Assembly (NCBI GenBank): GCA_963717935.1 | Contig: CAVQXP010000004.1 | Span: 1,664,001 to 1,728,000, forward strand | DNA length: 64,000 nt | Source: Candidatus Eiseniibacteriota bacterium | Lineage (GTDB): Bacteria; Eisenbacteria; RBG-16-71-46 | Direction of reading: 5' to 3' | In this document: positions 5,023 to 63,363 of the stretch, piece after piece | Layout: each line of letters starts with the position of its first letter | Position numbering within the stretch: the stretch's first letter is position 1 | The notes under the pieces: model-generated | Databases searched by the model: none | Seen by the model: the letters and a program-made list of their open reading frames with translations, nothing else | Told to the model about the DNA's origin: nothing | Translations under genes and position numbers: made by a program

Positions 5023-6424
<1,402 letters not shown>

Positions 6425-29225: not shown

Positions 29226-32585
<3,360 letters not shown>

Positions 32586-35573: not shown

Positions 35574-35603
35574 TTGACACTCCTTCCCGGCGGCCCATAG
35601 AAT
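35574..35603 (+). promoter_or_regulatory. Sigma70 promoter of the EPS operon
   Basis: TTGACA-N18-TAGAAT, ~265 nt upstream of the ATG at 35868. Confidence 0.7.
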
Positions 35604-41730: not shown

Positions 41731-41757
41731 TCTCCGCCAGGCAGGGAGGCCGGTCCG

Positions 41758-42107
41758 GTGAGGCGCCGCGGCACGGTGGCCGCCGCCCGGGGCATTCCGG
41801 AAGCCTCCTCGAGGAGTCGCCGTTGCGCAGTGTCCGGGTACCGAAGAACGTCCGCACCAACCACCTCCGGTTCCTCCTGGCCGGGCTCGTGGACAACGCG
41901 CGCTCGGCCGCTGCAGGCTGGGGCGGGCCGTGCCGCGCGCGAGCCACGGTGCGCTGGCGCGCGATCACCTGCGCGGCGCGTGGTTCGTCCCGGAGCGCGC
42001 GCTGCCGGTCGCGGTGGCCCTCCGGGCGAGCTTGCTGCCGCCAGCCCGGCTCGCCGGACCGCGGCGGCCGGGGTGGGCCGCGCGCCCGGTGGAGCGGCGC
42101 CTCGTGA
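41758..42107 (+). CDS. Possible small hypothetical protein (probably frameshifted)
   Basis: GGGAGG precedes the GTG at 41758; protein-like stretch LLEESPLRSVRVPKNVRTNHLRFLLAGLVDNAR in an otherwise tightly coupled operon. Confidence 0.3.
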
Positions 42108-42150
42108 GTCGGCGTCGCGTGCGGTTGTACGGTGCGGTGAAGGGTCCCCG

Positions 42151-43593
42151 ATGAGCCCGGACCATCCCGGCCCGGGCCCGGCCCCGGTCGCCGAGGCTCG
42201 CGGCGCGGCCCGGCGCCATGCGCGCCGGCTGTCCGCCGGCCTCGCGGTCGCGTTCGGCACGGCGCTGGCCCTCGTGTTGGTCGTGGGGTTCGTGGCGCTC
42301 GACTACCGCTTCGGCCAGGAGCCGCATCGCCTGGTGAAGATCGCGCTGGGCGGGGCGGTCGGCGTCTGGATCCTGCTGATCCCGCGCCTCGGGCTCTTCC
42401 TGCTGCCCGTGGCCACGCCGTTCCTCTCGTGGATGCCCCGCATCCCGGTGCCGGGCTTGAACATCCTGAACGTCCTCCTGTTCACGGTGTTCGCGAGCTG
42501 GGCGCTGGGGCGCATCTTCGCCCGGCAGCCGATCGTGCGGCGCACTCGCCTGGGGAGCCTGCTCGCCGCCATCATGGTGCTGGCCGCGCTCTCCATCGTG
42601 CGGGGCGCCGCGTTCCCCACCGGCTACCACTACGAGGGCCTCGCGGCGGCCTGGGGGCTGCTGCGCAGCGCCATGACCTTCGCCTTCTACTTCCTCGGCT
42701 TGTGGATGGTGCGGGGAGCGCAGGACCGCCGCCGCATGAGCTGGGCCATCGTCATCGGACTGCTCGCCGAGGCGGTCGTGACCATCGCCTTCGGGCGCAA
42801 CGGACGCGGTGGACGGGCCGTCGGCTCCTTCGGCCAGCCCAACGAACTGGGGGCCTTCCTGGCCATGTTCACGGCCTTCGCCGCCGCGCAGCTGCCCGCG
42901 GCGCGGCGCTGGGGGGCGCGGCTCGCGCTGAGCGGGGCGGTGGTGGCCGGCGTCTTCGCGGTGGTGCTGACGGTCTCGCGCGGCGCCGTGGTGGCGCTGG
43001 TGGCGGCGCTGCTCTTCGTCGCGCTGCGCAGCTCGCGCGTCCTCACCCTGATCCTGCTCGTCGCGGGAGTATCCTCGCCACTCTGGGCCCCGGACTACCT
43101 CAAGGAGCGCATGATGGGCATGCAGGTCGAGTCCGAGACCTCCGACGGCGTTTCGCTCGAGGCTTCGGCCCAGTTGCGCGTGGACACCTGGCGGGCCGTC
43201 ATGAAGGTGGTGTCGGAGCATCCGGTGGATGGCGTGGGCTTCTCGGGGCTTGGCTACGTGCTGCCCGCCGCCGGCCAGGAACTGGGTGTCGAGGTCAAGG
43301 ACTCGGCCCACAACACCTATCTGCGTTTCCTGGGCGAGATGGGCGTGCTGGGCCTGCTGCTCTTCCTGGCATTGCTGTGGCGCTGCTGGATGCTGGCGCG
43401 CGACGGCGTGCGGCTCGCGCGCGACCGCGCGGACCGGCAGCTCGCGCTGGGGCTCGCCGCGGCGACGATCGCGTTCGCCGTCTCGTGCGCCTTCGGCGAC
43501 CGCTTCTTCAGCGGGCTGATCTCGGGCAACTTCTGGCTGGCCTGTGCCCTCGTGGACGACCTCGTGAGCGAGCGCCGCGCGGAGGCCGCGTGA
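42151..43593 (+). CDS. O-antigen ligase/polymerase (Wzy_C) family protein
   Basis: Many TM helices; RAVGSFGQPNELG, LTVSRGA, HPVDGVG, SAHNTYL..LGEMG. Confidence 0.88.
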   Translation: MSPDHPGPGPAPVAEARGAARRHARRLSAGLAVAFGTALALVLVVGFVALDYRFGQEPHRLVKIALGGAVGVWILLIPRLGLFLLPVATPFLSWMPRIPVPGLNILNVLLFTVFASWALGRIFARQPIVRRTRLGSLLAAIMVLAALSIVRGAAFPTGYHYEGLAAAWGLLRSAMTFAFYFLGLWMVRGAQDRRRMSWAIVIGLLAEAVVTIAFGRNGRGGRAVGSFGQPNELGAFLAMFTAFAAAQLPAARRWGARLALSGAVVAGVFAVVLTVSRGAVVALVAALLFVALRSSRVLTLILLVAGVSSPLWAPDYLKERMMGMQVESETSDGVSLEASAQLRVDTWRAVMKVVSEHPVDGVGFSGLGYVLPAAGQELGVEVKDSAHNTYLRFLGEMGVLGLLLFLALLWRCWMLARDGVRLARDRADRQLALGLAAATIAFAVSCAFGDRFFSGLISGNFWLACALVDDLVSERRAEAA

Positions 43594-44612
43594 GCGGGCG
43601 TGCGCTGCGCTGGCTCGCGAGCCTGCTGCGGCACCCGCACGGCGATGGGGTGGCGAGCCTGGTCATCATCCGGCACCACCGTGTCTACGGCCCGGGCGAG
43701 CGTCCGCTCTACCGGCTGGGCGTGGGCGAGGACGTGCTGCGCGCGCAGCTCGCGCTGCTGGTGCGGCGCGGCCAGGTGCCTGTGACGGTCTCGGAGGGGT
43801 TGGCGCGGCTGGCGGGTGGGGAGCCCCGCCGCACCGTGGCGCTGAGCTTCGACGACGGCTACGCCGACAACGTGCGGCGCGTCCTGCCGCTGCTCGCGGC
43901 GGCCGGGGCGCGGGCCACGTTCTTCCTCACCGCGGGGCTCATCGAGGAGCGCCGGGCGCCCTGGTGGGACGAACTCGCGCACCTGCTCGCCGGGGCCCGC
44001 GTGGCGCGCTTCGAGCACGAAGGCCGCGTCTGCGAGCTCGCGGACGAAGCGGGCCGGGTGCGGGCGCTGCGAGCGCTCCTGCCCGCGTTCCGCACCTCAC
44101 CCGTGGGCCAGCGGGCGCTGCTCGAGGGCCTGGCCGGGCGTCTCGGGGTCCCGAACCCCGCGCCCTGCGAGCTGGCGACCTGGGAGGAGTGCGGCGCGCT
44201 GCGGGCGGCGGGGATGGAGGTCGGGGCGCACACGCTCACCCACCCCCTGCTCTCGACCCTGCCCGCTGCGGAGCAGGCCGCCGAGATCGGCGGCTCCTTC
44301 GAACTCATCGCGCGGCGGCTGGGCGAGCGGCCGCGCGGGCTCGCCTACCCGGGCGGCGACCACGACGCCGCGAGCCTCGAAGCGGCGCGTGCCGCCGGCG
44401 CCGCCTGGGCGGTGACCACGCGGGCGGGGGAGAACCGCGCGGACACGCCGGCGCTGGAACTGCTGCGCCGCGGACTCTCCGAGGGCGCGTGCCTCGGCCC
44501 GGGCGGGCGCTTTTCGGAGCGTCTGACGCTGGCCGAGCTGGACGGGCGGTTCGAGCGGCTGCGGGCGCGGCGGGCGCGGGCCGGCGTGCCCGCGGGGGAG
44601 GCCGCCGGATGA
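43590..44612 (+). CDS. Polysaccharide deacetylase
   Basis: LSFDDGYADN, ATFF, GAHTLTHP, LAYPGG. Confidence 0.88.
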   Translation: MSGRALRWLASLLRHPHGDGVASLVIIRHHRVYGPGERPLYRLGVGEDVLRAQLALLVRRGQVPVTVSEGLARLAGGEPRRTVALSFDDGYADNVRRVLPLLAAAGARATFFLTAGLIEERRAPWWDELAHLLAGARVARFEHEGRVCELADEAGRVRALRALLPAFRTSPVGQRALLEGLAGRLGVPNPAPCELATWEECGALRAAGMEVGAHTLTHPLLSTLPAAEQAAEIGGSFELIARRLGERPRGLAYPGGDHDAASLEAARAAGAAWAVTTRAGENRADTPALELLRRGLSEGACLGPGGRFSERLTLAELDGRFERLRARRARAGVPAGEAAG

Positions 44613-45756
44613 GCTTGCGGATCCGGGTGCTCTACGTGGTCGGCAACTTCGTCGCGGGCGGGGCGGAGCGCCATCTCGTCGAGCTGTGGAAGGGGATCGA
44701 CCGTGCGCGCTTCGAGGTCGTCATCGCCTGCTTCCGGCGCGAGGGCGCGTTCCTGGCCGAGGTGGAGTCGCTGGGCTGGCCGGTCCGCGAGCTCGCGGTC
44801 GGACGCCGCATCTATGGTGCGGCGGGCCTCGCGGGGTTCGCGCGCCTCCTGCACCTCGTGCGCGACGTGCGGCCGCAGGTCATCCACGGGTACCTCTTCG
44901 GCCCGAACCTCTACGCGGCGCTCGCCGGGCGGCTGGCGGGGGTGCCCGCGGTGGTCGTGGCCAAGCGCAACGTGGACGCCTTCGAGACGCGCCGGCAGGT
45001 CCTGGCGCAGCGGCTCGCGCATCGGCTGGCCACGCACGTGACGGCGGTGAGCGAGGTGGTGGCGGAGTCCGTCGTCGCCCTGGGCGTGCCGCGCGCGCGC
45101 GTCACCGTGATCCCGAACGGGGTGGACGCTGCGCGCTTCGTCCCACTCGCCCCGGTGGAGGAGGCGCGGCACGCGCTCGGCGCGGACGGCTGCGCCGCTG
45201 GTGGGGAGCGTGGGCTGCCTGGCCGCGCGCAAGGACTACGGCACGCTGCTCGAGGCGCTGCGCCTGCTCGGAGGGCCGCGGCGTCGCGTTCCGCGCGGCG
45301 CTGGTGGGGGACGGCCCCGACCGCGACGCGCTCGAGGCGCGCGCCGCCGCTCTGGGGCTCGCGGACCGCGTGCGGTTCCTCGGCGAGCGCGCCGACATCG
45401 ACCGCCTGCTGCCCGGCATGGACGTGTTCGTGCTCTCCTCCCGCGAGGAGGGGATCCCGAACGCGCTGCTCGAGGCCATGGCCGCGGGGCGTGCGTGCGT
45501 CGCGACGGCGGTGGGCGGCACGCCCGAGGTGCTGCGCGACGGCGAGACCGGCTGGCTCGTGCCGCCCGGCTCGCCCGGGGCGCTGGCGGACGCGCTCGAG
45601 CAGGCGCTCACGCGGCCCGGCGAAGCGCGCCGGCGCGGGGAGGCGGCCCGCCGCGCGGCGCGCGAGGAGCTGAGCATCGAGGCGATGGTGCGGCGGCACG
45701 AGGAGTTCTACGAGCACGTCGCCGGCCGCCCATCGACGGGGGGAGGGAGCCGGTGA
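44609..45756 (+). CDS. GT4 glycosyltransferase (frameshifts near 45190 and 45270)
   Basis: GGAERHL, VIPNGVD, DVFVLSSREEGIPNALLEAMA. Confidence 0.88.
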
Positions 45757-46994
45757 AGTCCGTGGCCTTCGTGACGACGACGTTCCCCACGCTCGCCTCG
45801 TTCATCGAGGACGACGTCCATCGGCTCACGGCCCGCGGCGTGCGGGTGCGGGTCTACGCGCTGCGCGGGGTCGGGCGCCAGTACCAGCCGCGGCACGCGC
45901 CACTGGTGGCCCTCACGGAATCCGTGGGCTCGCCCCTGGACCTGCGCGCCTGGGGGGCCATGCTGGTCTGGCTGCTGCGCCGCCCCGGCACGTTGGTGGG
46001 CGAGACCGCACGCATCCTCTGGGCTTCGCGCGGCTCGCCCTACGCGCTCGCCGGCCACCTGCTCTGGCTGCCCGCCGCCTGCCGCGTGGCTCTGCTCGTC
46101 GAGCGCGAGGGCCTCGAGCGCGTGCACGGGGCGTGGGCCCACTTCCCGGGCAGTGCGGCCTACCTCGCCGCGCGGCTGACGGGCCGGCCCTTCAGCCTCT
46201 CGGCGCACGCCGGCGCCGACCTCTACCGCACGCGCGCCTTCCTTGCGGAGAAGGTGCGCGCCGCCGATTTCGTGGCGACCTGCGTGCGTGGCAACGCGGA
46301 GCTGCTGCGCGAGCTGGCGGGCCCCGGCGCCCGGGTCGAGTGGGTCGCGCACGGCGTGGATCTCGCCCGCTTCGACGGCTCGGGCCGTGCGCCCGATCCC
46401 GATCCCGTTCTGATCACGGTCGGACGGCTCTCGCCGCCCAAGGGCTTCGACGACGCCATCCGCGCGCTGGCGCTCCTGCGCTCGCGCGGGCGCGAGGCCA
46501 CGCTCTGGCTGGTGGGCGACGGTCCCGAGCGGGTCGCCCTCGAAGCTCTGGCCCGCGAGACCGGCGTGGCGGACCGGGTACGCTTCCTCGGCGCGCTCAG
46601 CCACGAGGAGCTGTTGCCGCTCTACCGCCGGGCCTGGCTCCTGCTCGCCCCGAGCCGCGTGCTCGCCAACGGCCGCCGCGACGGCATCCCGAACGTGATC
46701 GTGGAGGCGATGGCGATGGGGATGCCCTGTGTGGGCACGCGCGCGGGCGGCATCGAGGAGGCGATCGTGCCGGGCGGGACCGGTGCGCTCGCCGAGCCGG
46801 GAGACCCGGCCTCGCTGGCCGATGCGGTCGAGAGCGTGCTGGCCGACCCGGAGGCGCTGGCGCGGCTCGGCCGCGCGGCGCGGCAGCGGGCCCTGGAGCG
46901 GTTCGACGCGGCGCGGAGCTTCGAGCGGTTCTTCGCGTTGTTCGAAGGGCACGAGGCGGACCCGCCTGCCGTGGCTCCCGGAGCCGGACGATGA
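45753..46994 (+). CDS. GT4 glycosyltransferase (WcaL-like)
   Basis: TFPTLASFI, HGVDLARF, VGRLSPPKG, DGIPNVIVEAMA. Confidence 0.88.
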   Translation: MKSVAFVTTTFPTLASFIEDDVHRLTARGVRVRVYALRGVGRQYQPRHAPLVALTESVGSPLDLRAWGAMLVWLLRRPGTLVGETARILWASRGSPYALAGHLLWLPAACRVALLVEREGLERVHGAWAHFPGSAAYLAARLTGRPFSLSAHAGADLYRTRAFLAEKVRAADFVATCVRGNAELLRELAGPGARVEWVAHGVDLARFDGSGRAPDPDPVLITVGRLSPPKGFDDAIRALALLRSRGREATLWLVGDGPERVALEALARETGVADRVRFLGALSHEELLPLYRRAWLLLAPSRVLANGRRDGIPNVIVEAMAMGMPCVGTRAGGIEEAIVPGGTGALAEPGDPASLADAVESVLADPEALARLGRAARQRALERFDAARSFERFFALFEGHEADPPAVAPGAGR

Positions 46995-48116
46995 GCGGGC
47001 GGACGCTGCGGGTGCTGCACGTCATCGAGGCCATGGACCGGGGTGGCGCGGAGTCGCTCATCGTGGAGCACGCGCGCCACGCGGGACCCGGCGTCGAGGT
47101 GCTGGTGTGCGCGCTCAACCGCGGAGGACCGGCGCTCGAGGCGGCGCGCGCCGCCGGAGCGCGGACCTTCGTGCTCCAGGGCCGCGGCCGGCTCGCGCGC
47201 ATCGGCCGGCTCGCGGGGCTGATCCGCGAAGAGGCGGTCACGGTGGTGAACGGCCACAACCCCACCGGGGGGCTGGCGGCGGCGCTGGCCGCGCGGCTCG
47301 CGGGCGTGCGCGCGGTGCTGCGCACGGAGCACAGCCTCCACTACGCGGGCCGGCACTCGGTCGCGTGGCCCGTCCTCGAACAGGTCGCGACGGCGCTCAC
47401 GGTGCGCGTCCTGTGCGTGTGCGAGACCGTGCGCGAGAGCCATGTGACGCGCTTCCGGCGCACGGCGCGGCGCTTCGTCACCGTGCTCAACGGAGTCTCG
47501 GTCGCTCCGGCCGCACGGCCGCGCGCGCAGGCGCGCGCAGCCCTCGGGTTCGGACCACGAGGAGCGCGTGGCGCTCAGCGTGGGCAGCATCACGCCGCAG
47601 AAGGCGCAGGATGTCCTGCTCGAGGCGTTCGCGCGGGCGGCGGCGGACGCGTCCGCAAGCCGGCTCCTGATCGCCGGGGAAGGGCCGCTGCGCGCCGGGC
47701 TCGAGGCCCGGTGCGATGCCCTGGGCCTGGGCGCACGCGTCCGGTTCCTGGGCGCGCGCGAGGACGTGGGCGACCTGCTCGCGGCGGCCGACGTGTTCGT
47801 GCTCTCCTCGCGGCGCGAGGGGCTCCCCGTGACCCTGCTCGAGGCGATGCGCGCGGGACGCGCGGCGGTCGTGACGCGCGCGGGCGGTTGCGCCGAGGCC
47901 GTGGCGGACGGGGACACGGGGCTGCTCGTGCCGGTGGGCGATGCCGTGGCACTGGGCGCGGCGCTTCGCGCGCTGCTGGCCGACCCCGGGCGCTGCGCGC
48001 GCCTGGGGGATGCGGCCCGCGAGCGCTGGGCGCGGGAGTTCACGGCGGAGCGCATGGTGCTCGAGACCGAGGGGATCTACGAGGCGGCGCTGGCCGCAGG
48101 AGGGACTGGCCGGTGA
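46991..48116 (+). CDS. GT4 glycosyltransferase (frameshift near 47560)
   Basis: RVLHVIEAMDRGGAE, DVFVLSSRREGLPVTLLEAM. Confidence 0.88.
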
Positions 48117-49249
48117 GCGGGGAGCGGTTGCTCGAGCCGGTGGGGCCGGTGCGCCTCAGCCTGGCCGCGATCGGCGACGTGGGGGTGATCGGGAGCGCCC
48201 GTGCCCGCGCGCGGCGCGAGGGCTGGGACGCGGTCTTCGCCGCGGCCGCCCCCGCGCTGCGCGCCGCGGACGCGGGCTTCGCGAACCTCGAGATGCCCGT
48301 GGCCGAGGCGGGCCAGGTGCGCCCGGGACGCTCCCCCGAGTTCCGGCACGATCCGGAGGTGCTCCCGGCGCTGGCGCGCGCGGGCGTGCGCGTCCTCGCG
48401 CTGGCCAACAACCACATCCTGGACTGCGGCCCGCGCGGGCTCGAGCGCACGCTTTCGGCCTGCGAGAGCGCGGGCCTTGCCTGCGCCGGCGCGGGGCCCG
48501 GCCTGGAGGCGGCGCGCCGCCCGGCCGAGTTCGTCGTCGGCTCGCAGCGCGTGGCCCTGCTGGCGTACGCTGCGCCCTCGAAGGAGAGCGCGCGGGCGGG
48601 CAGTCCGGGCCCGGCGCCGCTCGAGGCCGCGCTCGTCCGTGAGGACCTCGAACGCTGGCGCCCGCGCGCCGACGTGCTGGTCGTGAGCGTGCACTGGGGC
48701 TCGATGTACGTGGACTACCCGCCTCCGCGCGTGCTCGAGCTGGCGGAGACGCTGGAGCGCGGTGGGGCCGACCTCGTGCTCGGGCACCACCCTCACGTAT
48801 TGCAGGGCTGGCGTCGCGCGGGCCGGTGTCTGACGCTCTTCAGCCTCGGCGACGTGGTGTTCGACGCGCGCGCGGGTGACTTCGAGGCGCGCGTGGCATC
48901 CGCGACGCGGCGCGAGAGCGCGGTCTTCACGGTGCGCGTGGCGGACCAGCCCGGGCTGGACGTGCTGCCGCTCACGCTCGATCCCGACGGCTGGCCGCAG
49001 GCCCCGGACGAGGCCCGGGGACGCGCGCAAGTCGGGCGCCTGAGGGACCTTGCCGCGGGACTCGCGGATGCGCGCGGGCGCTTCGCCCGCGAGGCGGCCC
49101 CGCGCCTGCTCGGCTACGAGCTCGAGAGCCTCGGACATTACCTTCGGCAGGGCCGCCTGGATCGGGTCGCGCGACTGCTGGGCTCGGTGAGGCCGCGCCA
49201 CCTGCCGCTGCTGTGGCAGGCGCTGCGCCGGCGGGGAAGGGACGCATGA
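48113..49249 (+). CDS. CapA/PGA_cap family metallophosphoesterase
   Basis: IGDV, ANLEMP, LANNHILDCG, VSVHWG, LGHHPHVLQ, FSLGD. Confidence 0.88.
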   Translation: MSGERLLEPVGPVRLSLAAIGDVGVIGSARARARREGWDAVFAAAAPALRAADAGFANLEMPVAEAGQVRPGRSPEFRHDPEVLPALARAGVRVLALANNHILDCGPRGLERTLSACESAGLACAGAGPGLEAARRPAEFVVGSQRVALLAYAAPSKESARAGSPGPAPLEAALVREDLERWRPRADVLVVSVHWGSMYVDYPPPRVLELAETLERGGADLVLGHHPHVLQGWRRAGRCLTLFSLGDVVFDARAGDFEARVASATRRESAVFTVRVADQPGLDVLPLTLDPDGWPQAPDEARGRAQVGRLRDLAAGLADARGRFAREAAPRLLGYELESLGHYLRQGRLDRVARLLGSVRPRHLPLLWQALRRRGRDA

Positions 49250-49402
49250 CGAGGGAAGCCTGGGACACGAGGTGGCCTGCCGGCTGGAGGGTGGTGCCGT
49301 CCGGGCGCTGTCGAACGCCGCGGCGGTCGCGTGGCATCATGCGCGTCGGCGGCCGCCAGCGATCGCGGAGGCGCTGAAGCTGCGCAAGAGAGGCGGAGGA
49401 TC

Positions 49403-50284
49403 ATGAGCCAGAGGACGGAGGCACGGCGCTCGTTCGAGCGGCTGCTCGAGTGGACCATCCGGGTCGAGTACCCGGCGGCAGCGACGTTCCTGCCGGAGGC
49501 CGGGCGGGAGGCCTTTCTGGACTATTACAGGAACCTGCCGAAACTGCGTGAGCCGCAGGCGCTCGCGCGGTACCGCCGGGGCATGTGGCGCTCCGAGGCG
49601 GGCTGGGTGGCGCGCTGGGTCGCGCGGCGGCACGAGGTCACCGGGCGCAGGCCCCGCGTGCTCGACGCGGGTTCCGGGTTCGGGACCTACTCGATGCTCT
49701 TCGCGGCCGCGGGCGCCGAGGTCGTGGGCGCGGACCTGAGACCCGACCGGCTCGAAGCGACCGCGAGCCGGCTCGTCTTCTGCCGCGAGAGTCTGGGGCT
49801 GGATCTTCCGGTGCGCTGCGAGCGCGCGGACCTCACGGCCGCCTGGGACGCGGACTACGACCTGGTCTGGGTCTACAACGCGCTCTCGCACATCGACCCG
49901 CTGGAGCGCTTCCTCGAGGAACTCCGCCGCCACCTCAGGCCGGGGGGCGTACTGGCCGTGGGCGACATCAACGGCGCGCACCCGGGTCACGTGCGGCGCC
50001 TGGCCGGTCTGCGCGAGGAGGTGCACCAGGAATACGTGGCGCCCGACGGTCAGCGTTCCGCCTACGCGGTCGAGCGCACGTTCCCCCCGGGCGAATTGCG
50101 CCGGGAGATGCAGTCGCACGGCCTGCGGGTCGTGCACCACGAGCTCTACTGGGGCGGGTCGGGCGTGCTCGCCTGGCCCCTCTACGAAGGCCTGCTGCGG
50201 CCGCTGCAGACGCAATGGTGGCTGGGCGCGTGGTTCGCGCGGCGGCAACTGATGGTCGCCGCGGTGGCGCGGCCCGGGGCGTGA
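49403..50284 (+). CDS. Class I SAM-dependent methyltransferase
   Basis: RVLDAGSGFG, YDLVW, LRPGG; RBS GGAGG. Confidence 0.85.
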   Translation: MSQRTEARRSFERLLEWTIRVEYPAAATFLPEAGREAFLDYYRNLPKLREPQALARYRRGMWRSEAGWVARWVARRHEVTGRRPRVLDAGSGFGTYSMLFAAAGAEVVGADLRPDRLEATASRLVFCRESLGLDLPVRCERADLTAAWDADYDLVWVYNALSHIDPLERFLEELRRHLRPGGVLAVGDINGAHPGHVRRLAGLREEVHQEYVAPDGQRSAYAVERTFPPGELRREMQSHGLRVVHHELYWGGSGVLAWPLYEGLLRPLQTQWWLGAWFARRQLMVAAVARPGA

Positions 50285-50298
50285 GCGGAGGGCGGCGG

Positions 50299-52113
50299 AT
50301 GCGCGTGTTGTTCGTGACCCAGTATTTCCCGCCCGAGACCGGGGCGGCGCCCGCGCGGGCGCTGCACTTCGCGCGCGCTCTGGAGCGCGCCGGGCACGAG
50401 GTGCGCGTGGTGACGGGTCTGCCGAACCATCCCTCCGGCGTGGTGCAGCCCGCCTACCAGCGGGTGCGCCGCGCGAGCGAGCGGGACGGCGGGATCACGG
50501 TCGAGCGGGTGTGGCTGCACGCCACGCCGCGCAGGACGCCGGTGACGCGCCTCTGGAACCACCTCTCCTTCGCGCTCTCCGCACTGGGCCCCGCGCTCGC
50601 CGGGCCGCGGCCCGGCGTGGTGCTGGCGACCATGCCGCCGCTCTTCCTGGGAGCGACCGCCTGGCTCGTGGCGCGCTGGCACGGTGCTCCGCTCGTGATC
50701 GATTGCCGCGACGATTGGCCCGCGGCGGCCGTGGCGCTGGGCGAGATGCGCGCCGGGTTCGCCACGCGCGTGCTCGGGGGGCTCGCGCGGTTCCTCCAGC
50801 GCCGCGCGGAGCGCGTGCTCGCCGTCACGCCCGGGATGCTGCGCGCCTTCGAACGGGCCGGTCTCGACGCGGGCCGTCTGGTGCTCGTCACGAACGGCGC
50901 CGACACCGATCTGTTCCGGCCGGCGCCGGCGGGGCGGCCCGGTGGCTCCGGCCGGCCGTTCACGGTGCTGTATGCGGGCACGCACGGCCTGATCCACGGC
51001 ATGGAAGCGCTGCTCGACGCCGCAGAGCGCCTGCGCGCGCGCCGCGACGTCCGCTTCCTGCTGGTGGGCGACGGCGTGGCCAAGCCCGGGCTGGAGCGGC
51101 GCGCGCGCGAGGCCGGGCTGGAGCAGGTCGAGTTCCGTCCGAGCGTGGCGCCCGAGCGGCTGGTCGAGGAGATCCACGCGGCCGACGTGTGCGTGGCGAC
51201 GACGCGGGACCATTCCTTCTGCGGCGAGACCATCCCGGTCAAGCTCTTCGACTACCTGGCCTGCGGGCGCCCGGTGGTCGCCGCGGTGAGCGGGGACGCG
51301 GCGCGCGTGGTCGAGGAGTCGGGCGGGGGCGTGGTGGTCCCCCCGGGCGACGGGGCAGCCCTGGCGGAGGCGCTCGCGGCGCTCGCGGCCGACCCGGCGC
51401 GGTGCGCGGCCCTCGGCGCGGCCGGGCCCGCGTTCATCGAGGAGCGCTACTCGCGACGGGCGGTGGGGACGAAGCTCGTGGCGTTGCTGGAGCAGGTCTT
51501 GCGCCTGGCACGCGGGCGGGACGTGGCGCCCCGGCCGGCGGGACCCGGCGGCGCCGCCAAGCGCGCGGTGGACCTGGTCGTGGCCGGCGTCCTGCTCGTG
51601 GTCCTGGCGCCGCTCCTCGTCGCGCTCGCGCTCGCGGTCCGGCTCGACTCGCCCGGGCCGGCGCTCTTCCGCCAGCGGCGAGTGGGCCGCGCCTCACGCG
51701 AGTTCACCATCCTCAAGTTTCGCACCATGCGGGTGGGCACGCCGGACCTGGCCTCGCACCTCATGGGGCCGGGCTCGGACCGGGTCACGCGCGTCGGGCG
51801 GTGGTTGCGACGCACGAGCCTGGACGAGTTGCCGCAGTTGCTGAACGTGCTGGTCGGCGACATGACGCTGGTGGGACCACGGCCCGCGCTGCACAATCAG
51901 CACGACCTGGTCGCGCTGCGCCAGCAGGCCGGCGTGGACGCGCTCAAGCCCGGCGTGACCGGCTGGGCGCAGATCCACGGGCGCGACGACCTCCCGCTGG
52001 ACCGGAAGGTGGCCTACGACCACTGGTACCTCGAGCATGTCTCCTTCGGGCTCGACCTGGCCATCGCGCTGCGCACGCCCTTCGCGCTGCTCTCCTCGCG
52101 GGGGGTGTTCTGA
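50299..52113 (+). CDS. WbuB-like GT4 glycosyltransferase fused to a sugar (phosphoglycosyl) transferase
   Basis: TQYFPPE, LPNHP, PVKLFDYLACG, then KRAVDL, KFRTM, SLDELPQLLNV, VGPRP, KPGVTGWAQ. Confidence 0.9.
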   Translation: MRVLFVTQYFPPETGAAPARALHFARALERAGHEVRVVTGLPNHPSGVVQPAYQRVRRASERDGGITVERVWLHATPRRTPVTRLWNHLSFALSALGPALAGPRPGVVLATMPPLFLGATAWLVARWHGAPLVIDCRDDWPAAAVALGEMRAGFATRVLGGLARFLQRRAERVLAVTPGMLRAFERAGLDAGRLVLVTNGADTDLFRPAPAGRPGGSGRPFTVLYAGTHGLIHGMEALLDAAERLRARRDVRFLLVGDGVAKPGLERRAREAGLEQVEFRPSVAPERLVEEIHAADVCVATTRDHSFCGETIPVKLFDYLACGRPVVAAVSGDAARVVEESGGGVVVPPGDGAALAEALAALAADPARCAALGAAGPAFIEERYSRRAVGTKLVALLEQVLRLARGRDVAPRPAGPGGAAKRAVDLVVAGVLLVVLAPLLVALALAVRLDSPGPALFRQRRVGRASREFTILKFRTMRVGTPDLASHLMGPGSDRVTRVGRWLRRTSLDELPQLLNVLVGDMTLVGPRPALHNQHDLVALRQQAGVDALKPGVTGWAQIHGRDDLPLDRKVAYDHWYLEHVSFGLDLAIALRTPFALLSSRGVF

Positions 52114-56030: not shown

Positions 56031-58211
56031 TTGAACCTGACGTACCTGCCGCTCCAGGTCAGTCTCGTCACCGCGAGCGCGTTGCTTGCCACGATGATCG
56101 GGCTGCTCGCCCTGCTGCGGCGCGGGCACTGGCTGGTGACCCTGCTGTTCTCGTCGGCGTTTCTCAGCATGGCGGCCTTCCAGGCCGGGACCCTCGGCAT
56201 CGTGTACGCCGACTCCGCGCTGGCGGCCCGCACCTGGGCCACCTACCTGGCACAGGTCTCGGCACTGGCGTCGTGGCTGTGGCTCGCGCTCAGCGTGGTG
56301 CTGGCACGGCCCGACCCGTGGAAGCAGATCCGCGACGCGGGCGCCTACCTCACGCTGGCGCTCGTGGGCTGCGCGATCCTGTGGGGCATCGCCGGCACGC
56401 CCTGGGTGGTGCGCGAAGTGACCGGTGTGCGCGGCAGCGGGGTGATCCAGCTCGGGCCCCTGGGCAAGATCTACCTCATGTACCTGGTGGTCGTGATGGT
56501 GGCGATGCTGATGAATTTCGAGCGCATGCTGCGCATCGCCCCGGTCACCGTTCAGCGCTGGCTGCGCCCGTTGTTCGTCGCGTTCCTGGTGGGCATCCTG
56601 AGCGAGATGCTGCTGGTCTCGGGAGGGTTGCTCTTCGGCGGATTCCGGGTGTCCTGGCTGGCGGGGAGCGCGGTGCCCATGTTCGCGGCGGGAACGGTCA
56701 CCGCCCTGGCACTGGCGCGCCGACGCCTCTCGGACATGAGCGTGCCGATGGCCCGCCCGGTCATCTACTACTCCTCGGTCTCGCTCACCCTGGCCGGTGC
56801 CTTCCTGCTCCTGATGGCGGTGCTCTCGAAGGTTGTCCCGGTGCTCTCGCCCGAGGCCAAGCATGTCGTGAGCCTGGCCTTCTACCTGCTCGCGGGCGGT
56901 GGCGGGCTGTTGCTGACGCTGAGTCCGCGCACCAACCGCGCGGTGAAGCGCTTCGTGGACCGCAACTTCTACGCGAACCGCTACGACTACCGGCGTGAGT
57001 GGGAGCGCGTGAGCGCGGGCATCGTGCCGACGGCGCGGCTGGAGGACGTCGCGCGCCAGATGGAGGTGCTGGTGTGCGCCATCTTCGGCGCGGAGCGGGC
57101 GGCCATCTACCTGCGCGACGACGGGCGATCGGGCCTGCCCGGCATGGCCGCGCCGTTCCGCCGGCTGCACGGTCCGTCCGCCCTGCCGACCGTCATCGCT
57201 CCCGACAACGCGCTGGTGCGCGAACTGGAGCGCACGCGCATGCCGGTCGTGTTCCACGACGTGCGGCGGGATCTGGACCTCATCCCGATCGCGGTCGAGA
57301 ACCGCCCGACCATCCAGGCGATGACAGCCGCGGTGTGCGCTCCGCTGCAGGCCGGCGAGAGCGTGGTGGGGCTCCTGTGGCTCTCCGAGAAGCGCGACGA
57401 CGAGGCGTACACGCACGAGGACGCCGAGTTCCTCGGCGCCATGGCCCGCCAGCTCGGCGCGGCCCTGTGGTTCGCGCGCCTGGCAGAGCAGCTGGCGGAG
57501 ACACGGCAGCTCGAGTCGCTGAACCGGCTCTCGAGCTACGTGCTCCACGACATCAAGAACCAGGTCTCGGGCCTCTCGCTCGTGGTCCAGAACGCGCGCC
57601 GCTTCATGGACAACCCCGACTTCCAGCGCGACGCGCTGAAGACCATCGAGGGGACCGTGGCGAGCCTCACGCAGCTCATGAACCAGGTGGCCGGGATGGC
57701 GCGGCCCACGGACGTGCAGGTGGCGCCGTGCGAACTCAAGGGCCTGCTGGACGAGGCGGCTGCCTCGTCCGGGCTGGGCGGAACCGGCGCGGCAGCGGCG
57801 GACGTGCGCTTCCGGCTCACCTGGCGCGGGCCCGAAACGGCCGCGCTCGATCGCCGGCTCATGCTGCGCGTGCTCGTCAACCTGCTCACGAACGCGCGCG
57901 AGTCGCTCGGCGGACCCGGCGAGATCGAGCTGGCCGCCGGGCTCGAGCCCGATGCCGCCGGTGCGCAGAACCTCGTCTTCCGCGTGCGCGACACCGGGCA
58001 TGGCATGAGCGAGGAGTTCATCCGCACGTCCCTCTTCCGCCCGTTCGCCACGACCAAGCCCACCGGGCTGGGCGTCGGCCTCAGCCAGTGCCGCAGCATC
58101 GTCGAGGTCCTGGGCGGGACCATCACCGTCGACAGCCGCCCGGGCACGGGCACCACGTTCGCGGTGCACCTGCCGCTCGCCGCCGCCGAGACCACGGAGA
58201 AGTCCGCATGA
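56031..58211 (+). CDS. prsK: PEP-CTERM-system sensor histidine kinase (PrsK-like)
   Basis: ~9 TM helices; NFYANRYDYRREW signature; GAF domain; H-box VLHDIKN; NLLTNA, DTGHGM, FRPFATTK, GLGVGL. TTG start with AGGAGG RBS. Confidence 0.88.
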   Translation: MNLTYLPLQVSLVTASALLATMIGLLALLRRGHWLVTLLFSSAFLSMAAFQAGTLGIVYADSALAARTWATYLAQVSALASWLWLALSVVLARPDPWKQIRDAGAYLTLALVGCAILWGIAGTPWVVREVTGVRGSGVIQLGPLGKIYLMYLVVVMVAMLMNFERMLRIAPVTVQRWLRPLFVAFLVGILSEMLLVSGGLLFGGFRVSWLAGSAVPMFAAGTVTALALARRRLSDMSVPMARPVIYYSSVSLTLAGAFLLLMAVLSKVVPVLSPEAKHVVSLAFYLLAGGGGLLLTLSPRTNRAVKRFVDRNFYANRYDYRREWERVSAGIVPTARLEDVARQMEVLVCAIFGAERAAIYLRDDGRSGLPGMAAPFRRLHGPSALPTVIAPDNALVRELERTRMPVVFHDVRRDLDLIPIAVENRPTIQAMTAAVCAPLQAGESVVGLLWLSEKRDDEAYTHEDAEFLGAMARQLGAALWFARLAEQLAETRQLESLNRLSSYVLHDIKNQVSGLSLVVQNARRFMDNPDFQRDALKTIEGTVASLTQLMNQVAGMARPTDVQVAPCELKGLLDEAAASSGLGGTGAAAADVRFRLTWRGPETAALDRRLMLRVLVNLLTNARESLGGPGEIELAAGLEPDAAGAQNLVFRVRDTGHGMSEEFIRTSLFRPFATTKPTGLGVGLSQCRSIVEVLGGTITVDSRPGTGTTFAVHLPLAAAETTEKSA

Positions 58212-59651
58212 GCCGCGAGAAGGTCCTGATCGTCGACGACGAGGAAGCCATCCTGAGCCAGCTTCGCTGGGGACTTCAGGAGGAATACGACGTGCTGACC
58301 GCGTCCACGCCCGAGGAGGCGCGGCGCCAGCTGCGGGAGGAGCGCCCCAGCGTGGTGACGCTCGACCTGACGCTGCGCTCCGGTGGCGGCCCCGAGGACG
58401 GCCTGCAACTCCTCGACGAGATCGTGGACCAGTATCCGCTGACCAAGGTGATCATGGTCACCGGGAACGACGACCCGCAGAACGCCCTGCTCGCGATCCA
58501 CCGGGGCGCGGTGGACTGGTACTCCAAGCCGATCGAGCTCGACGAGCTCCGGGGCATCCTGCGGCGGGCGCTCCACGTGCGCTCGATCGAGCAGCTGCGG
58601 GGCGGCGCGGTGCTCTCCGGGCCGAAGCGCTACCACCGGCTGGTGGGGGAGTCCGAGGCGATCCGCCGGGTGTTCGCGCTCGTCCAGCGCGTGGCCGGGA
58701 CCGACGCGACGGTGCTGATCACCGGCGAGAACGGCTCCGGCAAGGAGCTGGTGGCCCACGCCATCCACACGGCCGGCGCCCGGCGGACCGGGCCGTTCGT
58801 GCCCATCAATTGCGGGGCCATCCCGGAGCAGTTGCTCGAGAGCGAATTGTTCGGGCACGAGCGCGGCGCCTTCACCGACGCCCACCGCATGCGCGAGGGC
58901 AAGCTGGAGCTGGCGGAGGGGGGCACCATCTTCCTGGACGAGATCGCGGAGCTGCCCACGCACCTGCAGGTGAAGCTGCTGCGCTTCCTGCAGGACAAGG
59001 TGGTCGAGCGCGTGGGCGGGCGGGAGCAACGCAAGGTGGACGCTCGCGTCGTGGCCGCCACCAACCAGGATCTCAAGGCGGCGATCGCGGCGGGGCGCTT
59101 CCGCGAGGATCTCTATCTACCGGCTGAGCGTCGTGAACATCGCGGTGCCGCCGCTACGCGAGCGTGGCGACGACCTGCGGCTGCTGGCGGAGTTCTTCCT
59201 CGGCTTCTACGCGATGCACCACAAGCGCCGCATCCGCGGCTTCACGCAGGCCGCGCTGCGGGCGGTGCAGGCGCACCCCTGGCCCGGGAACGTGCGCGAG
59301 CTGGAGAATCGCGTGCAACGCGCGGTGATCCTGGCGCAGGGCGCCCACGTGCGGCCCTCGGACCTCGAGCTGGAGGCGGGGCTCGAGGACGGGCCGCAGA
59401 GCCTGCAGGGCGCCCGCGACGAGGCGGAGCAGCGGCTGCTGGTCGAGTCGCTCACACGCAACGCCGGCAACATCACGCGTGCGGCACGCGACATCAGGGT
59501 GAGCCGGCCCACCTTCCACGACCTGCTCCGCAAGCATGGCATCGAGGTGGGGCGCTACCGCAAGCCTGACGTGCCTGGGCCGGTCGAGCCGGAGGGGGAC
59601 GGGGAGGCCGAGGGCGACGAGCCGGGCGGGCCGGCGGAGGAGCGGCCGTGA
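58208..59651 (+). CDS. prsR: Sigma54-dependent response regulator (PrsR-like; frameshift near 59115)
   Basis: VLIVDDE, VTLDL, GENGSGKE, ESELFGHERGAFTDA, FLDEI, WPGNVRELEN, Fis-type HTH SRPTFHDLL. Confidence 0.88.
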
Positions 59652-60295
59652 GCCCGGGCTATTTCCTCGCCATCGCCGGGAACATCGGGGTCGGCAAGAC
59701 GGAGCTCACGACGCGGCTCAGCGCGGAGCTGGGCTGGATGGCGTACTACGAGCCGGTCATCCAGAACCCGTACCTGGACGACTTCTACGCCGACATGTCG
59801 CGCTGGAGCTTCCACCTGCAGATCTACTTCCTGAGCGAGCGCTTCAAGGCGCAGGTCCAGATCGGCTCGAGCCCGCTGCCCTTCATCCAGGACCGCACGA
59901 TCTACGAGGACGCCGAGATCTTCGCCCGGGTGCTGCACGACCAGGGCTCGATGTCGGCGGTCGACTACCGCAACTACACGTCGCTCTTCCACGTGCTGGT
60001 GGGGTTCCTGCGCAAGCCGGACCTCATCGTCTACCTGAAGGCGAGCCCCGACGTGCTCATGGAGCGCATCGGGCGCCGGGGACGCGCCAGCGAGCAGAGC
60101 ATCCACCGCGACTACATCGCGCGCCTGAACGGCGCCTACGATGACTGGATGCGGCGCGCGCGCGCCGAGACCGAGGTGCTGGAGATCGACACCGACCAGG
60201 TGCCGCTCCAGGGCGAGACCGAGGCCTTCGCGCGGCTGGTGGGCGACCTGAAAGCGCGCTACCCGAGGCAGGCGGTGCTGGACCTGGGAGAGTAG
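59648..60295 (+). CDS. Deoxynucleoside kinase
   Basis: IAGNIGVGKT, NPYLDDFY, LQIYFL, QDRTIYED, PDLIVYL, RGRASE. Confidence 0.92.
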   Translation: MSPGYFLAIAGNIGVGKTELTTRLSAELGWMAYYEPVIQNPYLDDFYADMSRWSFHLQIYFLSERFKAQVQIGSSPLPFIQDRTIYEDAEIFARVLHDQGSMSAVDYRNYTSLFHVLVGFLRKPDLIVYLKASPDVLMERIGRRGRASEQSIHRDYIARLNGAYDDWMRRARAETEVLEIDTDQVPLQGETEAFARLVGDLKARYPRQAVLDLGE

Positions 60296-60378
60296 GGGGA
60301 CGGCCGGCTCCGCGGGCCTTGCTGCGCGACAGCCCCTCGTCCGTGGCCCAAGGGCGATCGCCCTCATGGGCGCGAAAC

Positions 60379-60449
60379 GCCGGGCCTGCCGGAGCCGTGG
60401 GACGAGCAGAGGCACCATGCGCTCGCCCCACGGCTCCGGCAGGCCCGGC
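60379..60449. repeat. 29-bp-arm hairpin with the conserved core (copy B1)
   Basis: Arms 60379-60407 and 60421-60449 with 1 mismatch; loop AGAGGCACCATGC identical to copy A. Confidence 0.85.
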
Positions 60450-60452
60450 TGC

Positions 60453-60523
60453 GCGATGGCCGTGACAGCCGAAGGACGAGCGCATGGTGCCTCTGCTCGT
60501 CCTTCGGCTGTCACAGCCATCGC
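60453..60523. repeat. 29-bp-arm hairpin with the conserved core in reverse orientation (copy B2)
   Basis: Arms 60453-60481 and 60495-60523 with 1 mismatch; loop GCATGGTGCCTCT is the reverse complement of the A/B1 loop. Confidence 0.85.
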
Positions 60524-60549
60524 CCATGCACCGCCCGTGCACGGCCCGT

Positions 60550-63363
60550 CTACCGCCCGGCGGACTCCAGCGCCGTCACGCACCGCCCGCACAGCCCGGC
60601 GCGTGCGCCCTCGGCGACCACGTCCTTGCGGTGCATCCAGCAGCGCTCGCACTTCACCAGCGCCGTGGGCTGCACCGTGACCGCCAGTTCACCCGTGGGC
60701 CCGGTCGCCGTCAGCTCCACCTTCGCCACGATCAGGAACGCGGCCAACTCGCCGCCGTAGGCGCGCAGTCGCGAGATCACGGGCTCGGGGCCGGCGATCG
60801 CGATCTCGGTGGCCGCGGGCGAGGCCACCGTCTTTGCCGCACGCAGCGGCTCGATGGCGGCGTTGACCGCGTCGCGCACGCCGTGCAGGAACTCCCACTC
60901 CTCGTCGGTCGCGGGGTCGGTCGCGCCGGCCGGCCGCTCCGGCCAGCGCGCCAGGTGCACGCTCTCGCACTCGGCCAGCAGCGCGGGGTGGTGCTGCCAG
61001 ACCTCCTCGGCGGTGAAGACCAGCGCCGGAGAGATCGCGATGGTCAGGTCGTGCAGCGCCTGCCACAGGACGGTCTGCGCCGAGCGCCGTGCGGGATCGT
61101 CCGCGGCCAGCGTGTAGAGCCGGTCCTTCGAGACGTCGAGGAAGACGGCCGAGAGATCCACGGTGCACAGGCCGAGCACGGCGTCGAGGGCGCGGTGGAA
61201 CTGCAGCGCCTGCCAGGCCTCGCGCACCACGGCGAGCCGGGCGGTGAGCGCGTCGGAGAATGCGCGGTCCACCGCGGTGAGCCGTTCGCACGGCAGCGCC
61301 TGCGCGGGATCGAAGTCCCCGAGGTTGCCGAGCAGGAAGCGGAACGTGTTCCGCACCTTCCGGTAGGCGTCGGCAGTGCGCTCGAGGATCTCGTCGCTGA
61401 CGCGCACGTCGCTGCGCCAGTCGGTGGCCAGCGCCCACCAGCGCACGATCTCGGCGCCGTACTTCTTCACCACGTCGTGCGGCAGGATGATGTTGCCGAG
61501 CGACTTGTGCATGGCGCGGCCCTCACCGTCGAGCACCCAGCCGTGCGTGCACACGTCGGTGTAGGGCGCGTGGTCGGTGGCGCCGACGCCGACCATGAGC
61601 GAGGAGTTGAACCAGCCACGGTGCTGGTCGGGGCCCTCGAAGTAGACGACGCGCCCGCCCTCGCTCTCGGCCTTGCGCCAGAGCGCGTCGAGCGCGGGGT
61701 GCGTGACCCGCACGGCGCGGTGGGTCGAGCCCGAGTCGAACCACACGTCGAGGATGTCGCTCTCGCGGCGGAACGGGCCTTCGGCGCCGCACGCCGGGCA
61801 CTTGAGGCCGGGCGGCAGGAAGTCCTCGACCGGGCGCTCGTACCAGGCGTCCGAGCCGTGGGCGCGCGTCATCTCGACGGCGCGGCGCATGATGCTGGCG
61901 TCGAGGATGGGCTGGTCACAGGGCTCGCAGTAGATGGCCGGGATTCCCACGCCCCAGCTGCGCTGGCGGGACAGGCACCAGTCGGGGCGCCCGCGCACGG
62001 ACTCGCGGATGCGGTTCTGCGACGACGCCGGATCCCAGTGCACGCCCTCGATCAGCGCGAGCGCGCGCTCGCGGTGCGTGGGAGCGTCCGCGGCGGGGGC
62101 GTGGTCGATGATCATGAACCACTGGTCGGTGGCGCGGAAGATCACGGGCTGGCGGCAGCGCCAGCAGTGCGGGTAGGAGTGGACGAACGAGGAGGCGGCC
62201 AGCAGCCGGCCGCGCTCCTTGAGCCACGCGATGATGTCGGCGTTCACCTCGAGCACGCTGCGGCCCACGAAGGGCTCCGCGCCGGCGAGGAAACGGCCGG
62301 CCTCGTCTACCGGGCAGGAAACCTCGAGGCCTTCGCGCTGGCCGACGAAGAAGTCCTCCTTGCCGTGGCCGGGCGCCGTGTGCACCAGGCCGGTGCCGTC
62401 CTCCATGCTGACGAAGGGCATGCCGTCCACCACGCGCGAGTCGCGGCCCCAGGGGTTCTCGAAGATCGCGCCGACCAGTTCGCGCCCTCGCACCCTGGCG
62501 GCGACGGCGGCGTCGGTCCAGCCGACGGCCTGCGCCACCGCCTCGAGCCGCGCGGCGGCCACGACCCAGTGCCGGCCTCCGGCGGTCGCCACGGCGTAGT
62601 CGGCGTCGGGGTCCACCATCAGGCCGACGTTGGCGGGCAGGGTCCAGGGCGTGGTGGTCCAGGCGATGGCGGCCACGCCGGGCCATGCCTCGAGCGCGCC
62701 GCGCGGGTCGGAACGCAGCGGGAAGGGCACGAAGATCGAGGGCGAGGGATCGTCCGCGTACTCGATCTCGGCCTCGGCCAGCGCGGTGCGGTCGGTCGGG
62801 CACCAGTGGATCGAGCGCAGGCCGCGCTGGATGAAGCCGCGCCCGGCGAGGACGGCGAAGGCGTCGAGGATCGCCGCCTCGAAGTTGGTGTCCATCGTCA
62901 GGTAGGGTGCCTCCCACTCGCCCCAGCCGCCGAGGCGCTCGAACTCGCCGCGCTGCACGTCCACCCAGTGCGCGGCGTACTCGCGGCAGCGGTGGCGCAG
63001 GGCGATGCGTTCGGGCTTGAGCCCCTTCTCGCGGAACTCGCTGGCGACGCGGGTCTCGATCGGCATGCCGTGGTTGTCCCAGCCCGGCACGTAGGGTGCG
63101 TCCCAGCCCATGAGCGAGGCCTGGCGCACGGCGGCGTCCTTCCAGATCTTGTTGGCCGCCGTGCCCATGTGGAGGTGACCGTTGGAGTAGGGCGGGCCGT
63201 CGTGCAGCAGCCAGACCGGCGCGCCGGCGCGCTTCTCGCGCAGGCGGTGGTAGAGGTCGCGCTCCTTCCACCACGCCAGGCGCTCGGGCTCGCGCCTGAG
63301 CAGGTCGGCCTTCATGGGGAATTCCGTCCGCGGCAGGTTCAGCGTGTCGCGATAGCCGGCCAT
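60550..63363 (-). CDS. ileS: Isoleucine--tRNA ligase (type 1, C-terminal zinc finger)
   Basis: TLNLPRTEFPMKA, LHDGPPY, WTTTPWTLPAN, GTGLVHTAPGHG, DWCLSRQRSWG, DQHRGWF, KCERCW...CGRC. Confidence 0.96.
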   Translation of the reverse strand: MAGYRDTLNLPRTEFPMKADLLRREPERLAWWKERDLYHRLREKRAGAPVWLLHDGPPYSNGHLHMGTAANKIWKDAAVRQASLMGWDAPYVPGWDNHGMPIETRVASEFREKGLKPERIALRHRCREYAAHWVDVQRGEFERLGGWGEWEAPYLTMDTNFEAAILDAFAVLAGRGFIQRGLRSIHWCPTDRTALAEAEIEYADDPSPSIFVPFPLRSDPRGALEAWPGVAAIAWTTTPWTLPANVGLMVDPDADYAVATAGGRHWVVAAARLEAVAQAVGWTDAAVAARVRGRELVGAIFENPWGRDSRVVDGMPFVSMEDGTGLVHTAPGHGKEDFFVGQREGLEVSCPVDEAGRFLAGAEPFVGRSVLEVNADIIAWLKERGRLLAASSFVHSYPHCWRCRQPVIFRATDQWFMIIDHAPAADAPTHRERALALIEGVHWDPASSQNRIRESVRGRPDWCLSRQRSWGVGIPAIYCEPCDQPILDASIMRRAVEMTRAHGSDAWYERPVEDFLPPGLKCPACGAEGPFRRESDILDVWFDSGSTHRAVRVTHPALDALWRKAESEGGRVVYFEGPDQHRGWFNSSLMVGVGATDHAPYTDVCTHGWVLDGEGRAMHKSLGNIILPHDVVKKYGAEIVRWWALATDWRSDVRVSDEILERTADAYRKVRNTFRFLLGNLGDFDPAQALPCERLTAVDRAFSDALTARLAVVREAWQALQFHRALDAVLGLCTVDLSAVFLDVSKDRLYTLAADDPARRSAQTVLWQALHDLTIAISPALVFTAEEVWQHHPALLAECESVHLARWPERPAGATDPATDEEWEFLHGVRDAVNAAIEPLRAAKTVASPAATEIAIAGPEPVISRLRAYGGELAAFLIVAKVELTATGPTGELAVTVQPTALVKCERCWMHRKDVVAEGARAGLCGRCVTALESAGR

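Follow-up and report, generated by a model that had tools for sequence, protein, structure and literature searches.

The closest described counterparts of the elements analysed here are REPs and REPINs. REPs are extragenic, lie mainly between convergent and unidirectional genes near 3' ends, and often occur as opposed dimers, and members of the GTAG/CGTC superfamilies carry an unpaired GTAG or CGTC at one end of a palindrome of 20–40 bp (excerpts of PMC3733652). In the passages of PMC3337134 that deal with these elements, REPIN spacers are different in each copy yet always hairpin-forming, and long palindromic REP singlets (a-palindrome-a^c) are described as being left by excision of the REPIN centre. 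The TnpA-REP of E. coli recognises an imperfect small palindrome interrupted by a bulge, as stated in an extract of PMC8266576.

Here we describe a hairpin element that occurs three times in the window, that is, in the whole 64,000-nucleotide stretch of DNA that was analysed. We consider it probable that these three copies, A, B1 and B2, represent an undescribed non-autonomous family of REP/REPIN-like palindromic repeats of Candidatus Eisenbacteria-type genomes. This reading is based on the occurrence of extragenic palindromes, on doublets, on sites near the 3' ends of genes and on a stem segment that is copy-specific yet paired. The family most resembles REPs, as a new relative rather than as a member of a described family.

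Three hairpins with a common core in the window

The first-pass annotation had reported two back-to-back hairpins carrying one core in opposite orientations, with near-perfect stems, and the sequence is as described. These hairpins, a third one and an associated partial copy are as follows:

60379–60449, + strand: copy B1, a 71-nt hairpin with 29-nt arms, 97% complementary (core 60403–60425; 13-nt apical module 60408–60420)
60453–60523, − strand: copy B2, a 71-nt hairpin (minus-strand core 60477–60499)
8383–8455, + strand: copy A, a 73-nt hairpin with a 30-bp stem containing one mismatch, 97% complementary (core 8408–8430)
~8466–8512, + strand: tandem half-copy of A, made up of the apical module (3' part only), the inner stem of the right side, a right arm that has diverged, and flank

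The 23-nt core is exact at all three positions, and no fourth match was found in the window even at 3 mismatches; a search of the window with the 13-nt loop at up to 2 mismatches returned the same three sites and no others. Only 0.01 core matches are expected by chance and none of 100 shuffles gave three or more, in agreement with the initial view that three exact 23-mers are unlikely to be coincidental.

The single mismatch in the 29-bp stem of B1 is an A.C pair adjoining the core, and all three of the stem mismatches in the window copies are transitions. In B2, pairing reaches 60450–60526 (32 nt at 94%). The predicted single-stranded DNA folding energies are −43.2, −37.9 and −44.8 kcal/mol for B1, B2 and A, respectively, with z-scores of −10.2, −11.2 and −9.4, and none of 200 shuffles was equally stable. 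The 13-nt loop noted at first pass is common to the three copies; however, it is not a plain loop, being predicted to fold into a 4-nt bulge and a 3-bp helix closing a 3-nt loop, which gives an asymmetric tip.

B1 and B2 form an inverted doublet with a spacing of 3 nt. Their stems had been called unrelated, a description that applies only within the window, where outer-stem identity is 0.48 despite the identical cores; in the best-sampled genome the outer and inner stems are 86% and 90% identical between copies. Even for B1 and B2 it needs qualifying, since 8 of the 10 innermost stem positions are the same in the two copies, and at the other two a change in the opposite arm compensates. Over 79 nt that include its left flank, B1 shows 79.7% identity to copies in another genome. 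Identical cores combined with dissimilar arms in the window make simple descent from one master copy less easy to envisage.

A deoxynucleoside kinase gene (+) has its stop at 60295, 84 nt before B1, and B2 sits 24–27 nt past the stop of the IleRS gene (60550, −), each copy being sense to the gene in question. Copy A lies between convergent genes, one for a VTT/DedA-type protein ending at 8303 (+) and one for an FlgD_ig-domain protein ending at 8514 (−), and its half-copy stops just short of the stop codon of the latter (8514–8516). Tandem Repeats Finder reports A plus the half-copy as a repeat of period 51 with 1.9 copies (8415–8512, 87% matches).

Distribution among Eisenbacteria-type genomes

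Reference genomes were searched with the exact central 17 nt of the core as the key, and the matches listed comprise at least 105 stretches. Among these, the key sits in a hairpin element at 18 loci, all of Eisenbacteria type and from four assemblies; 17 are labelled Candidatus Eisenbacteria (three assemblies) and one 'uncultured bacterium', and at least 11 are on one 3.62-Mb chromosome. The 18 loci hold 16 full hairpins with stems of 19–33 bp, along with copies that are truncated, interrupted or halved. The remaining 87 loci, which come from many phyla and have flanking pairing of at most 13 bp, were set aside as chance matches. A blind hairpin scan of 136 kb of the related loci found 18 long hairpins, and every one of them has the core or a variant of it with 1–2 mismatches.

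The window belongs to a genome different from those of the 18 loci, and the sole locus homologous to it is L045, with 72% identity over 4.7 kb of the C25-peptidase gene; it is on this one match that the genome of the window was placed, provisionally, in the same candidate phylum. The family is present in several genomes at non-orthologous sites. The initial description of the element as dispersed was therefore correct, with related copies in at least 18 loci of other genomes; copy number and taxonomic range are both lower bounds, as they refer to the matches listed. At 29066–29123 of the window, directly past the stop of the C25-peptidase gene, there is a coreless imperfect 27-bp hairpin. At the orthologous site in L045 an element with the constant tip stands in its place; the two sequences are unrelated and the downstream block is conserved.

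A covariance model had been suggested as a check on the family. The model, R1, built from 21 copies from the window and related loci, finds A (81.2 bits), B1 (82.1 bits) and B2 (87.7 bits) alone in the window, the next match being a generic hairpin at 28 bits. In the related loci it adds a diverged copy with different arms (L030 9184–9266, 44 bits) and recovers several partial copies. The 28-bit hairpin, the best match outside the family, is a 22-bp palindrome with a 6-nt loop at 33004–33053, past tRNA-Glu and abutting the stop codon of the RsgA gene (minus strand). Its arm resembles family arms and it is without the core, and on the minus strand the RsgA stop lies within a GTAG directly before the stem.

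Copies that were found through proximity or the model rather than through the key have 1–3 tip changes and more decayed stems, a coupling that fits birth and death of copies. The constancy of the tip partly reflects ascertainment, as 17 of its nucleotides are the search key. With three copies in 64 kb, and only one unlinked extra copy in ~100 kb of flanks, the copy number looks like tens, not hundreds.

Chimeric reads can create long near-perfect palindromes, and some window genes have apparent frameshifts, which is what a fold-back artefact of sequencing or assembly might look like. This explanation is excluded, because independent assemblies also contain the element: four others have it, and for these different assemblers are inferred from the contig names. 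In addition, each copy has point mismatches, the copies lie in otherwise collinear intergenic DNA between intact genes, and the tip has an asymmetric orientation that is conserved. An artefact is vanishingly improbable.

Stem anatomy, covariation and rearrangements

The unit is a hairpin of ~65–75 nt (the units measured span 65–79 nt) with four zones. The first is a conserved apical module, a 5-bp inner stem around the 13-nt tip, beneath which are two or three conserved base pairs that form the second. The third is a middle stem of ~11 bp that is copy-specific in sequence but retains pairing, and the fourth is a G-rich/C-rich outer stem that is alike within a genome. For 12 copies from one chromosome, the left-arm identity between copies and the Watson–Crick pairing within copies are:

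Outer stem: identity 0.86, pairing 0.90
Middle stem (11 pairs): identity 0.42, pairing 0.94
Inner stem: identity 0.90, pairing 0.98

A MAFFT alignment of 21 copies contains 29 predicted pairs, and 20 of these show double-sided changes. Paired cells amount to 94.4% of 605, against 72.4% in shuffles, and double-change cells number 121, against 31.8; neither value was reached by any of 500 shuffles. When the partner column was slid as a control, pairing fell to 34–46%. Stem length is not constant among the 21 copies, as had been thought from those in the window, but ranges from 19 to 33 bp (mean 26.9). Changes in length are matched between the arms: the outer G-run lies 20–23 nt from the core, and in all 11 copies that could be measured the other arm mirrors this spacing exactly. 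The non-Watson–Crick cells, read on the core-forward strand, comprise 15 G.T, 11 A.C and 23 others, with no strand favoured, and G.U makes up only ~2.5% of cells. Two copies in one genome have a common inner-stem pair that is G.T on the core-forward strand and hence compatible with G.U. An asymmetric internal loop in the stem is common to copies of one genome.

A number of rearrangements have occurred at the DNA level. A composite of ~150 nt, made up of a hairpin, a 24-nt spacer and a half-copy, occurs twice, at loci that are ~356 kb from each other and whose flanks are unrelated, and its two copies are ~95% identical over the central 100 columns. Half-copies stand beside full copies at five loci, representing four independent events; in the core-forward orientation they are always 3' of the full hairpin and start within ~8 nt of the left edge of the core. 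At L030 and at copy A the duplicated unit reaches, or enters, the convergent gene at its 3' end. A mini-hairpin of 20 nt is inserted into one copy, again at the 5' edge of the core, and at one locus there is a solo core with 8 bp of pairing. The three inverted doublets (B1/B2, L011 and L036) are always ordered with the forward copy followed by the reverse copy. At L062 (~5045–5110, minus strand, left of the hairpin) the outer half of the left arm, with its flank, occurs as about three tandem units of ~31 nt, indicating that slippage also takes place on the 5' side of a copy.

These observations bear on the possibility that only the 23-nt core is mobile or seeding and that the arms are local, either because the tip lands in older terminator hairpins or because the 5-bp repeat primes fold-back copying of the flank. 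The identical cores and dissimilar arms of the window copies would be explained in this way, as would the diverged L030 copy, whose arms are unlike the consensus of its genome, and the solo core with just 8 bp of pairing. The half-copies (core plus right flank) could be intermediates, the mirrored length changes would be accommodated, and at the orthologous site described above the window has a coreless hairpin where L045 has the element. However, the 86–90% identity of outer and inner stems between copies and the lack, in the 136 kb of loci (~100 kb of it from the best-sampled genome), of comparable hairpins that have no core indicate that in this genome the arms travel with the core. Insertion of the tip into older hairpins is disfavoured, since pairing abuts the core in 20 of the 21 copies with no remnant of an older loop, and copying of a whole arm by fold-back would be expected to erase the conserved asymmetric internal loop. 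Furthermore, when 20-nt arm segments of the 21 copies were compared with ~200 kb of sequence at up to 3 mismatches, they matched only their own partner arm and sister copies. We regard a core that moves without its arms as quite unlikely.

Genomic context and relation to known systems

None of the copies is inside Pfam-validated coding sequence, and the genes beside them are housekeeping genes. Fifteen of the 21 sites could be classified: seven are convergent, six tandem (one inferred from synteny with the window) and two divergent, while six were left out (four with short flanks, one ambiguous and one other). At least one gene 3' end faces the element at 13 of the 15. The bias to convergent sites that had been proposed is suggestive only (7/15 against a naive 25%, P = 0.057). 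Of the six tandem sites, four have the proximal copy in sense orientation to the upstream gene and two in antisense, and the two divergent sites carry 2–3 copies each. Replication-strand bias was rejected, as the strand of the core does not follow local GC skew (roughly 8 versus 7). No direct repeats are evident at the stem ends.

Some further features of the window were noted. Genes for tRNA-Gln(CTG) (32657–32730) and tRNA-Glu(CTC) (32857–32932) are directly 3' of the GlnRS-like and GluRS-like genes. A GluRS-like gene appears to be split (31274–32668 with 32121–32582), with the catalytic and anticodon-binding domains in different frames, and so does a gene for an NtrC-type sigma-54 activator (56999–59569 with 58974–59648), in which the AAA+ core is in one frame and the lid in another; the cause is either genuine frameshifting or indels of the assembly. 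A polysaccharide biosynthesis cluster at ~34500–52100 encodes Polysacc_synt_2, Bac_transf, Wzy_C, several GT1/GT4 glycosyltransferases and methyltransferases.

An explanation that does not require mobility is that the hairpins are host RNA elements, selected as mRNA 3'-end structures (a terminator or an exonuclease block) with the constant tip acting as a site for a conserved RNA-binding factor or as a mimic of a ribosome-binding site. It would account for B1 and B2 each being sense to the nearest gene, 24–84 nt downstream of it, for the gene 3' ends that face the element at 13 of 15 sites and for the sense orientation at four of six tandem sites. The tip recurs in several genomes and reads GAGG, four nucleotides, ATG, as a ribosome-binding-site mimic might, and the G.T pair in two copies of one genome would still pair in RNA. 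Against it stand the two antisense tandem sites, the two divergent sites with their 2–3 copies each, and the fact that every inverted doublet includes one antisense copy. No T-run was found in the 9 nt past the stem in any of the 21 copies, and a terminator scan of 59800–61000 gave 0 terminator-like sites. The 15 G.T against 11 A.C cells reveal no strand bias, and the proportion of G.U is low. Decayed copies lose tip and stem together, as in birth and death rather than selection on each copy, and the half-copies and the composite duplicated at a second locus are DNA-level events. The RNA 3'-end signal put forward in the first-pass annotation thus fits B1 and B2 themselves; for the family, orientation at tandem sites is mixed (4 sense, 2 antisense), and a general role of this type is not supported in view of the divergent sites (2/15), the missing T-tract and the absence of strand bias. 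Selection as a host RNA element is, in our judgement, unlikely.

Like Rho-independent terminators, the elements are GC-rich hairpins soon after stop codons, including a back-to-back convergent pair, but they have no T-tract, their stems are much longer than usual, the tip is common to unrelated genes and genomes, and some copies lie between divergent genes. A coding reading of the ATG in the tip was rejected because the frames downstream of it are no more open than 72% G+C would lead one to expect and are not the same from copy to copy; the tip-ATG frame of L072 is a 66-codon ORF antisense to pnp.

Comparison with databases supports the earlier statement that the element is undescribed. Over the whole window only two tRNAs reach the gathering threshold in Rfam 15, and in a permissive Rfam search around B1/B2 the best match is to a microRNA-precursor model (39.5 bits against a threshold of 99). 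The literature searched contained no description of the element: among the matches listed no paper links Eisenbacteria with palindromic repeats, and nothing was found on REPs with a 'conserved loop'. An origin of the arms as phage- or plasmid-derived spacers, a match that had been suggested for checking, finds no support, as blastn of 60365–60535 against phage and plasmid collections gave no match.

The family is like REPs and REPINs in consisting of short dispersed extragenic palindromes with frequent inverted doublets and clusters. Its distribution over seven convergent, six tandem and two divergent sites matches that given for REPs in the excerpt of PMC3733652, part of the hairpin is copy-specific yet always paired as in the REPINs of the cited passages of PMC3337134, and the tip is a small imperfect palindrome with a bulge, as is the TnpA-REP substrate in the extract of PMC8266576. 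The resemblance extends to the long palindromic REP singlets of PMC3337134, as far as they are treated there, in that a small imperfect palindrome is centred in a longer perfect one, and doublets with inverted cores (B1/B2, L011 and L036) coexist with singlets. In the Pseudomonas singlets of that passage, however, the arms are conserved REP flanks and the palindromes are 20–28 bp, whereas here the arms extend 24–28 nt beyond the core and their middle is copy-specific.

There are other differences. At ~71 nt the unit is about twice the classical REP length of 20–40, and only the 23-nt core fits that size. The conserved part is the tip of the hairpin, not its base or ends. A conserved outer stem around a variable paired middle, which may correspond to the REPIN layout of two inverted REPs with conserved ends and a hairpin-forming spacer, is seen in one genome, but the tip is conserved as well, and the window copies are without a common outer stem. 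Copies appear to number in the tens, unlike the hundreds of REPs. A regular GTAG or CGTC tag is also missing. In the interval from 8 nt outside to 4 nt inside each stem end, three of the 21 copies have CTAC, the GTAG complement, on the right-hand side, and three have CGTC or its complement, one of these at both ends; 15 of the 21 are without any motif of the GTAG/CGTC type. The family therefore coincides neither with an Rfam family nor with the tagged REP superfamilies, either of which would have made it a known element. A short motif that reads as the complement of GGCGGTAG adjoins hairpins at 60546–60560 and 33048–33058 of the window and at ~5056–5066 of L011, and at the two window positions the stop codons of the IleRS and RsgA genes lie within it. 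The motif may be a coincidence or a vestigial tag of the GTAG type.

Integron attC sites are folded single-stranded DNA recognised by structure, with conserved boxes at the base and a variable tip. The present family also combines conserved boxes with a variable but paired segment; unlike attC, it is the tip that is conserved, and there is no integrase or cassette context. MITEs have target-site duplications and terminal inverted repeats that match those of an IS. As to such a derivation from an insertion sequence, the sole transposase seen is that of an IS256-type element (L007 3677–4921, Mutator-family transposase, 16-nt terminal inverted repeats). One end of this element is 55 nt from a hairpin copy; its terminal repeats are unrelated to the family, and it was rejected as the source of a linked enzyme because it is a separate IS with terminal repeats of its own.

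A linked enzyme had been looked for on the strength of the first-pass annotation, which proposed an HUH-nuclease or recombinase substrate recognised as a single-stranded hairpin, and none was found near the copies. Pfam scans detected no HUH/Y1 domain in 52 window ORFs or in the 95 ORFs within 5 kb of copies at the 18 loci, and rescanning 16 of these at E values up to 0.05 again gave no Y1/HUH match. No recombinase or other recurrent neighbour was seen among the same 95, 52 and 16 ORFs, and no RAYT gene was seen in the window ORFs or in the neighbouring ORFs of the loci. In REPIN–RAYT systems the genome has a RAYT gene, which encodes an HUH/Y1 transposase and usually has the repeats on either side. 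The lack of an HUH/Y1 gene in the 52 and 95 ORFs counts against the putative HUH or recombinase substrate, which is favoured by the REP/REPIN-like behaviour of the family and by the clustering of break-points at the 5' edge of the core, and we regard it as plausible. A strictly lagging-strand, IS200-like mechanism might leave a relation to GC skew, and the split of roughly 8 to 7 argues against that version.

On the REP/REPIN-like reading that we prefer, a trans-acting enzyme would recognise the apical module in its folded, single-stranded state and copy the element as DNA, and the leading candidate is a nuclease of the HUH/Y1 (RAYT-like) type that nicks the core at its 5' edge. The arms would be kept complementary by copying or correction of one from the other while the DNA is folded. 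Copies would persist where they are least harmful, mostly just downstream of genes, and there they would incidentally become the 3' hairpin of the flanking mRNAs. The main support for this scheme comes from the break-points that cluster at the core edge and from the mirrored length changes.

It is also conceivable, if rather improbable, that the element is a palindrome-regenerating repeat, in which a candidate nicking enzyme would read only the asymmetric 23-nt tip plus a few adjacent pairs and an arm would be rebuilt at each round of copying or repair. After a nick at the 5' edge of the core, the arm would be restored through fold-back priming at the 5-bp inner stem or through correction on the folded strand. 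Regeneration of this kind would leave the mid-stem randomised between copies yet perfectly paired, and would produce mirrored length changes and half-copies that always consist of the core and the 3' arm. No description of such a copying mode for bacterial repeats was found in the literature searched.

The family does not amount to a new kind of system, and no evidence ties it to defence, to regulation of specific genes or to mobile cargo. If our reading of it is correct, a barely studied candidate phylum has a REP-like family of its own, with inverted conservation in the sense that the tip is constant and the middle of the stem is free but paired. Covariance model R1 can be used to flag the hairpins in Eisenbacteria assemblies, as marks of gene ends and as likely sites of assembly trouble. 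The copies would also constitute a natural data set on how arm complementarity is maintained in palindromic repeats, a matter that the REPIN literature raises and has not settled, and the folded 23-nt motif would serve as bait for the enzyme or host factor that reads it.
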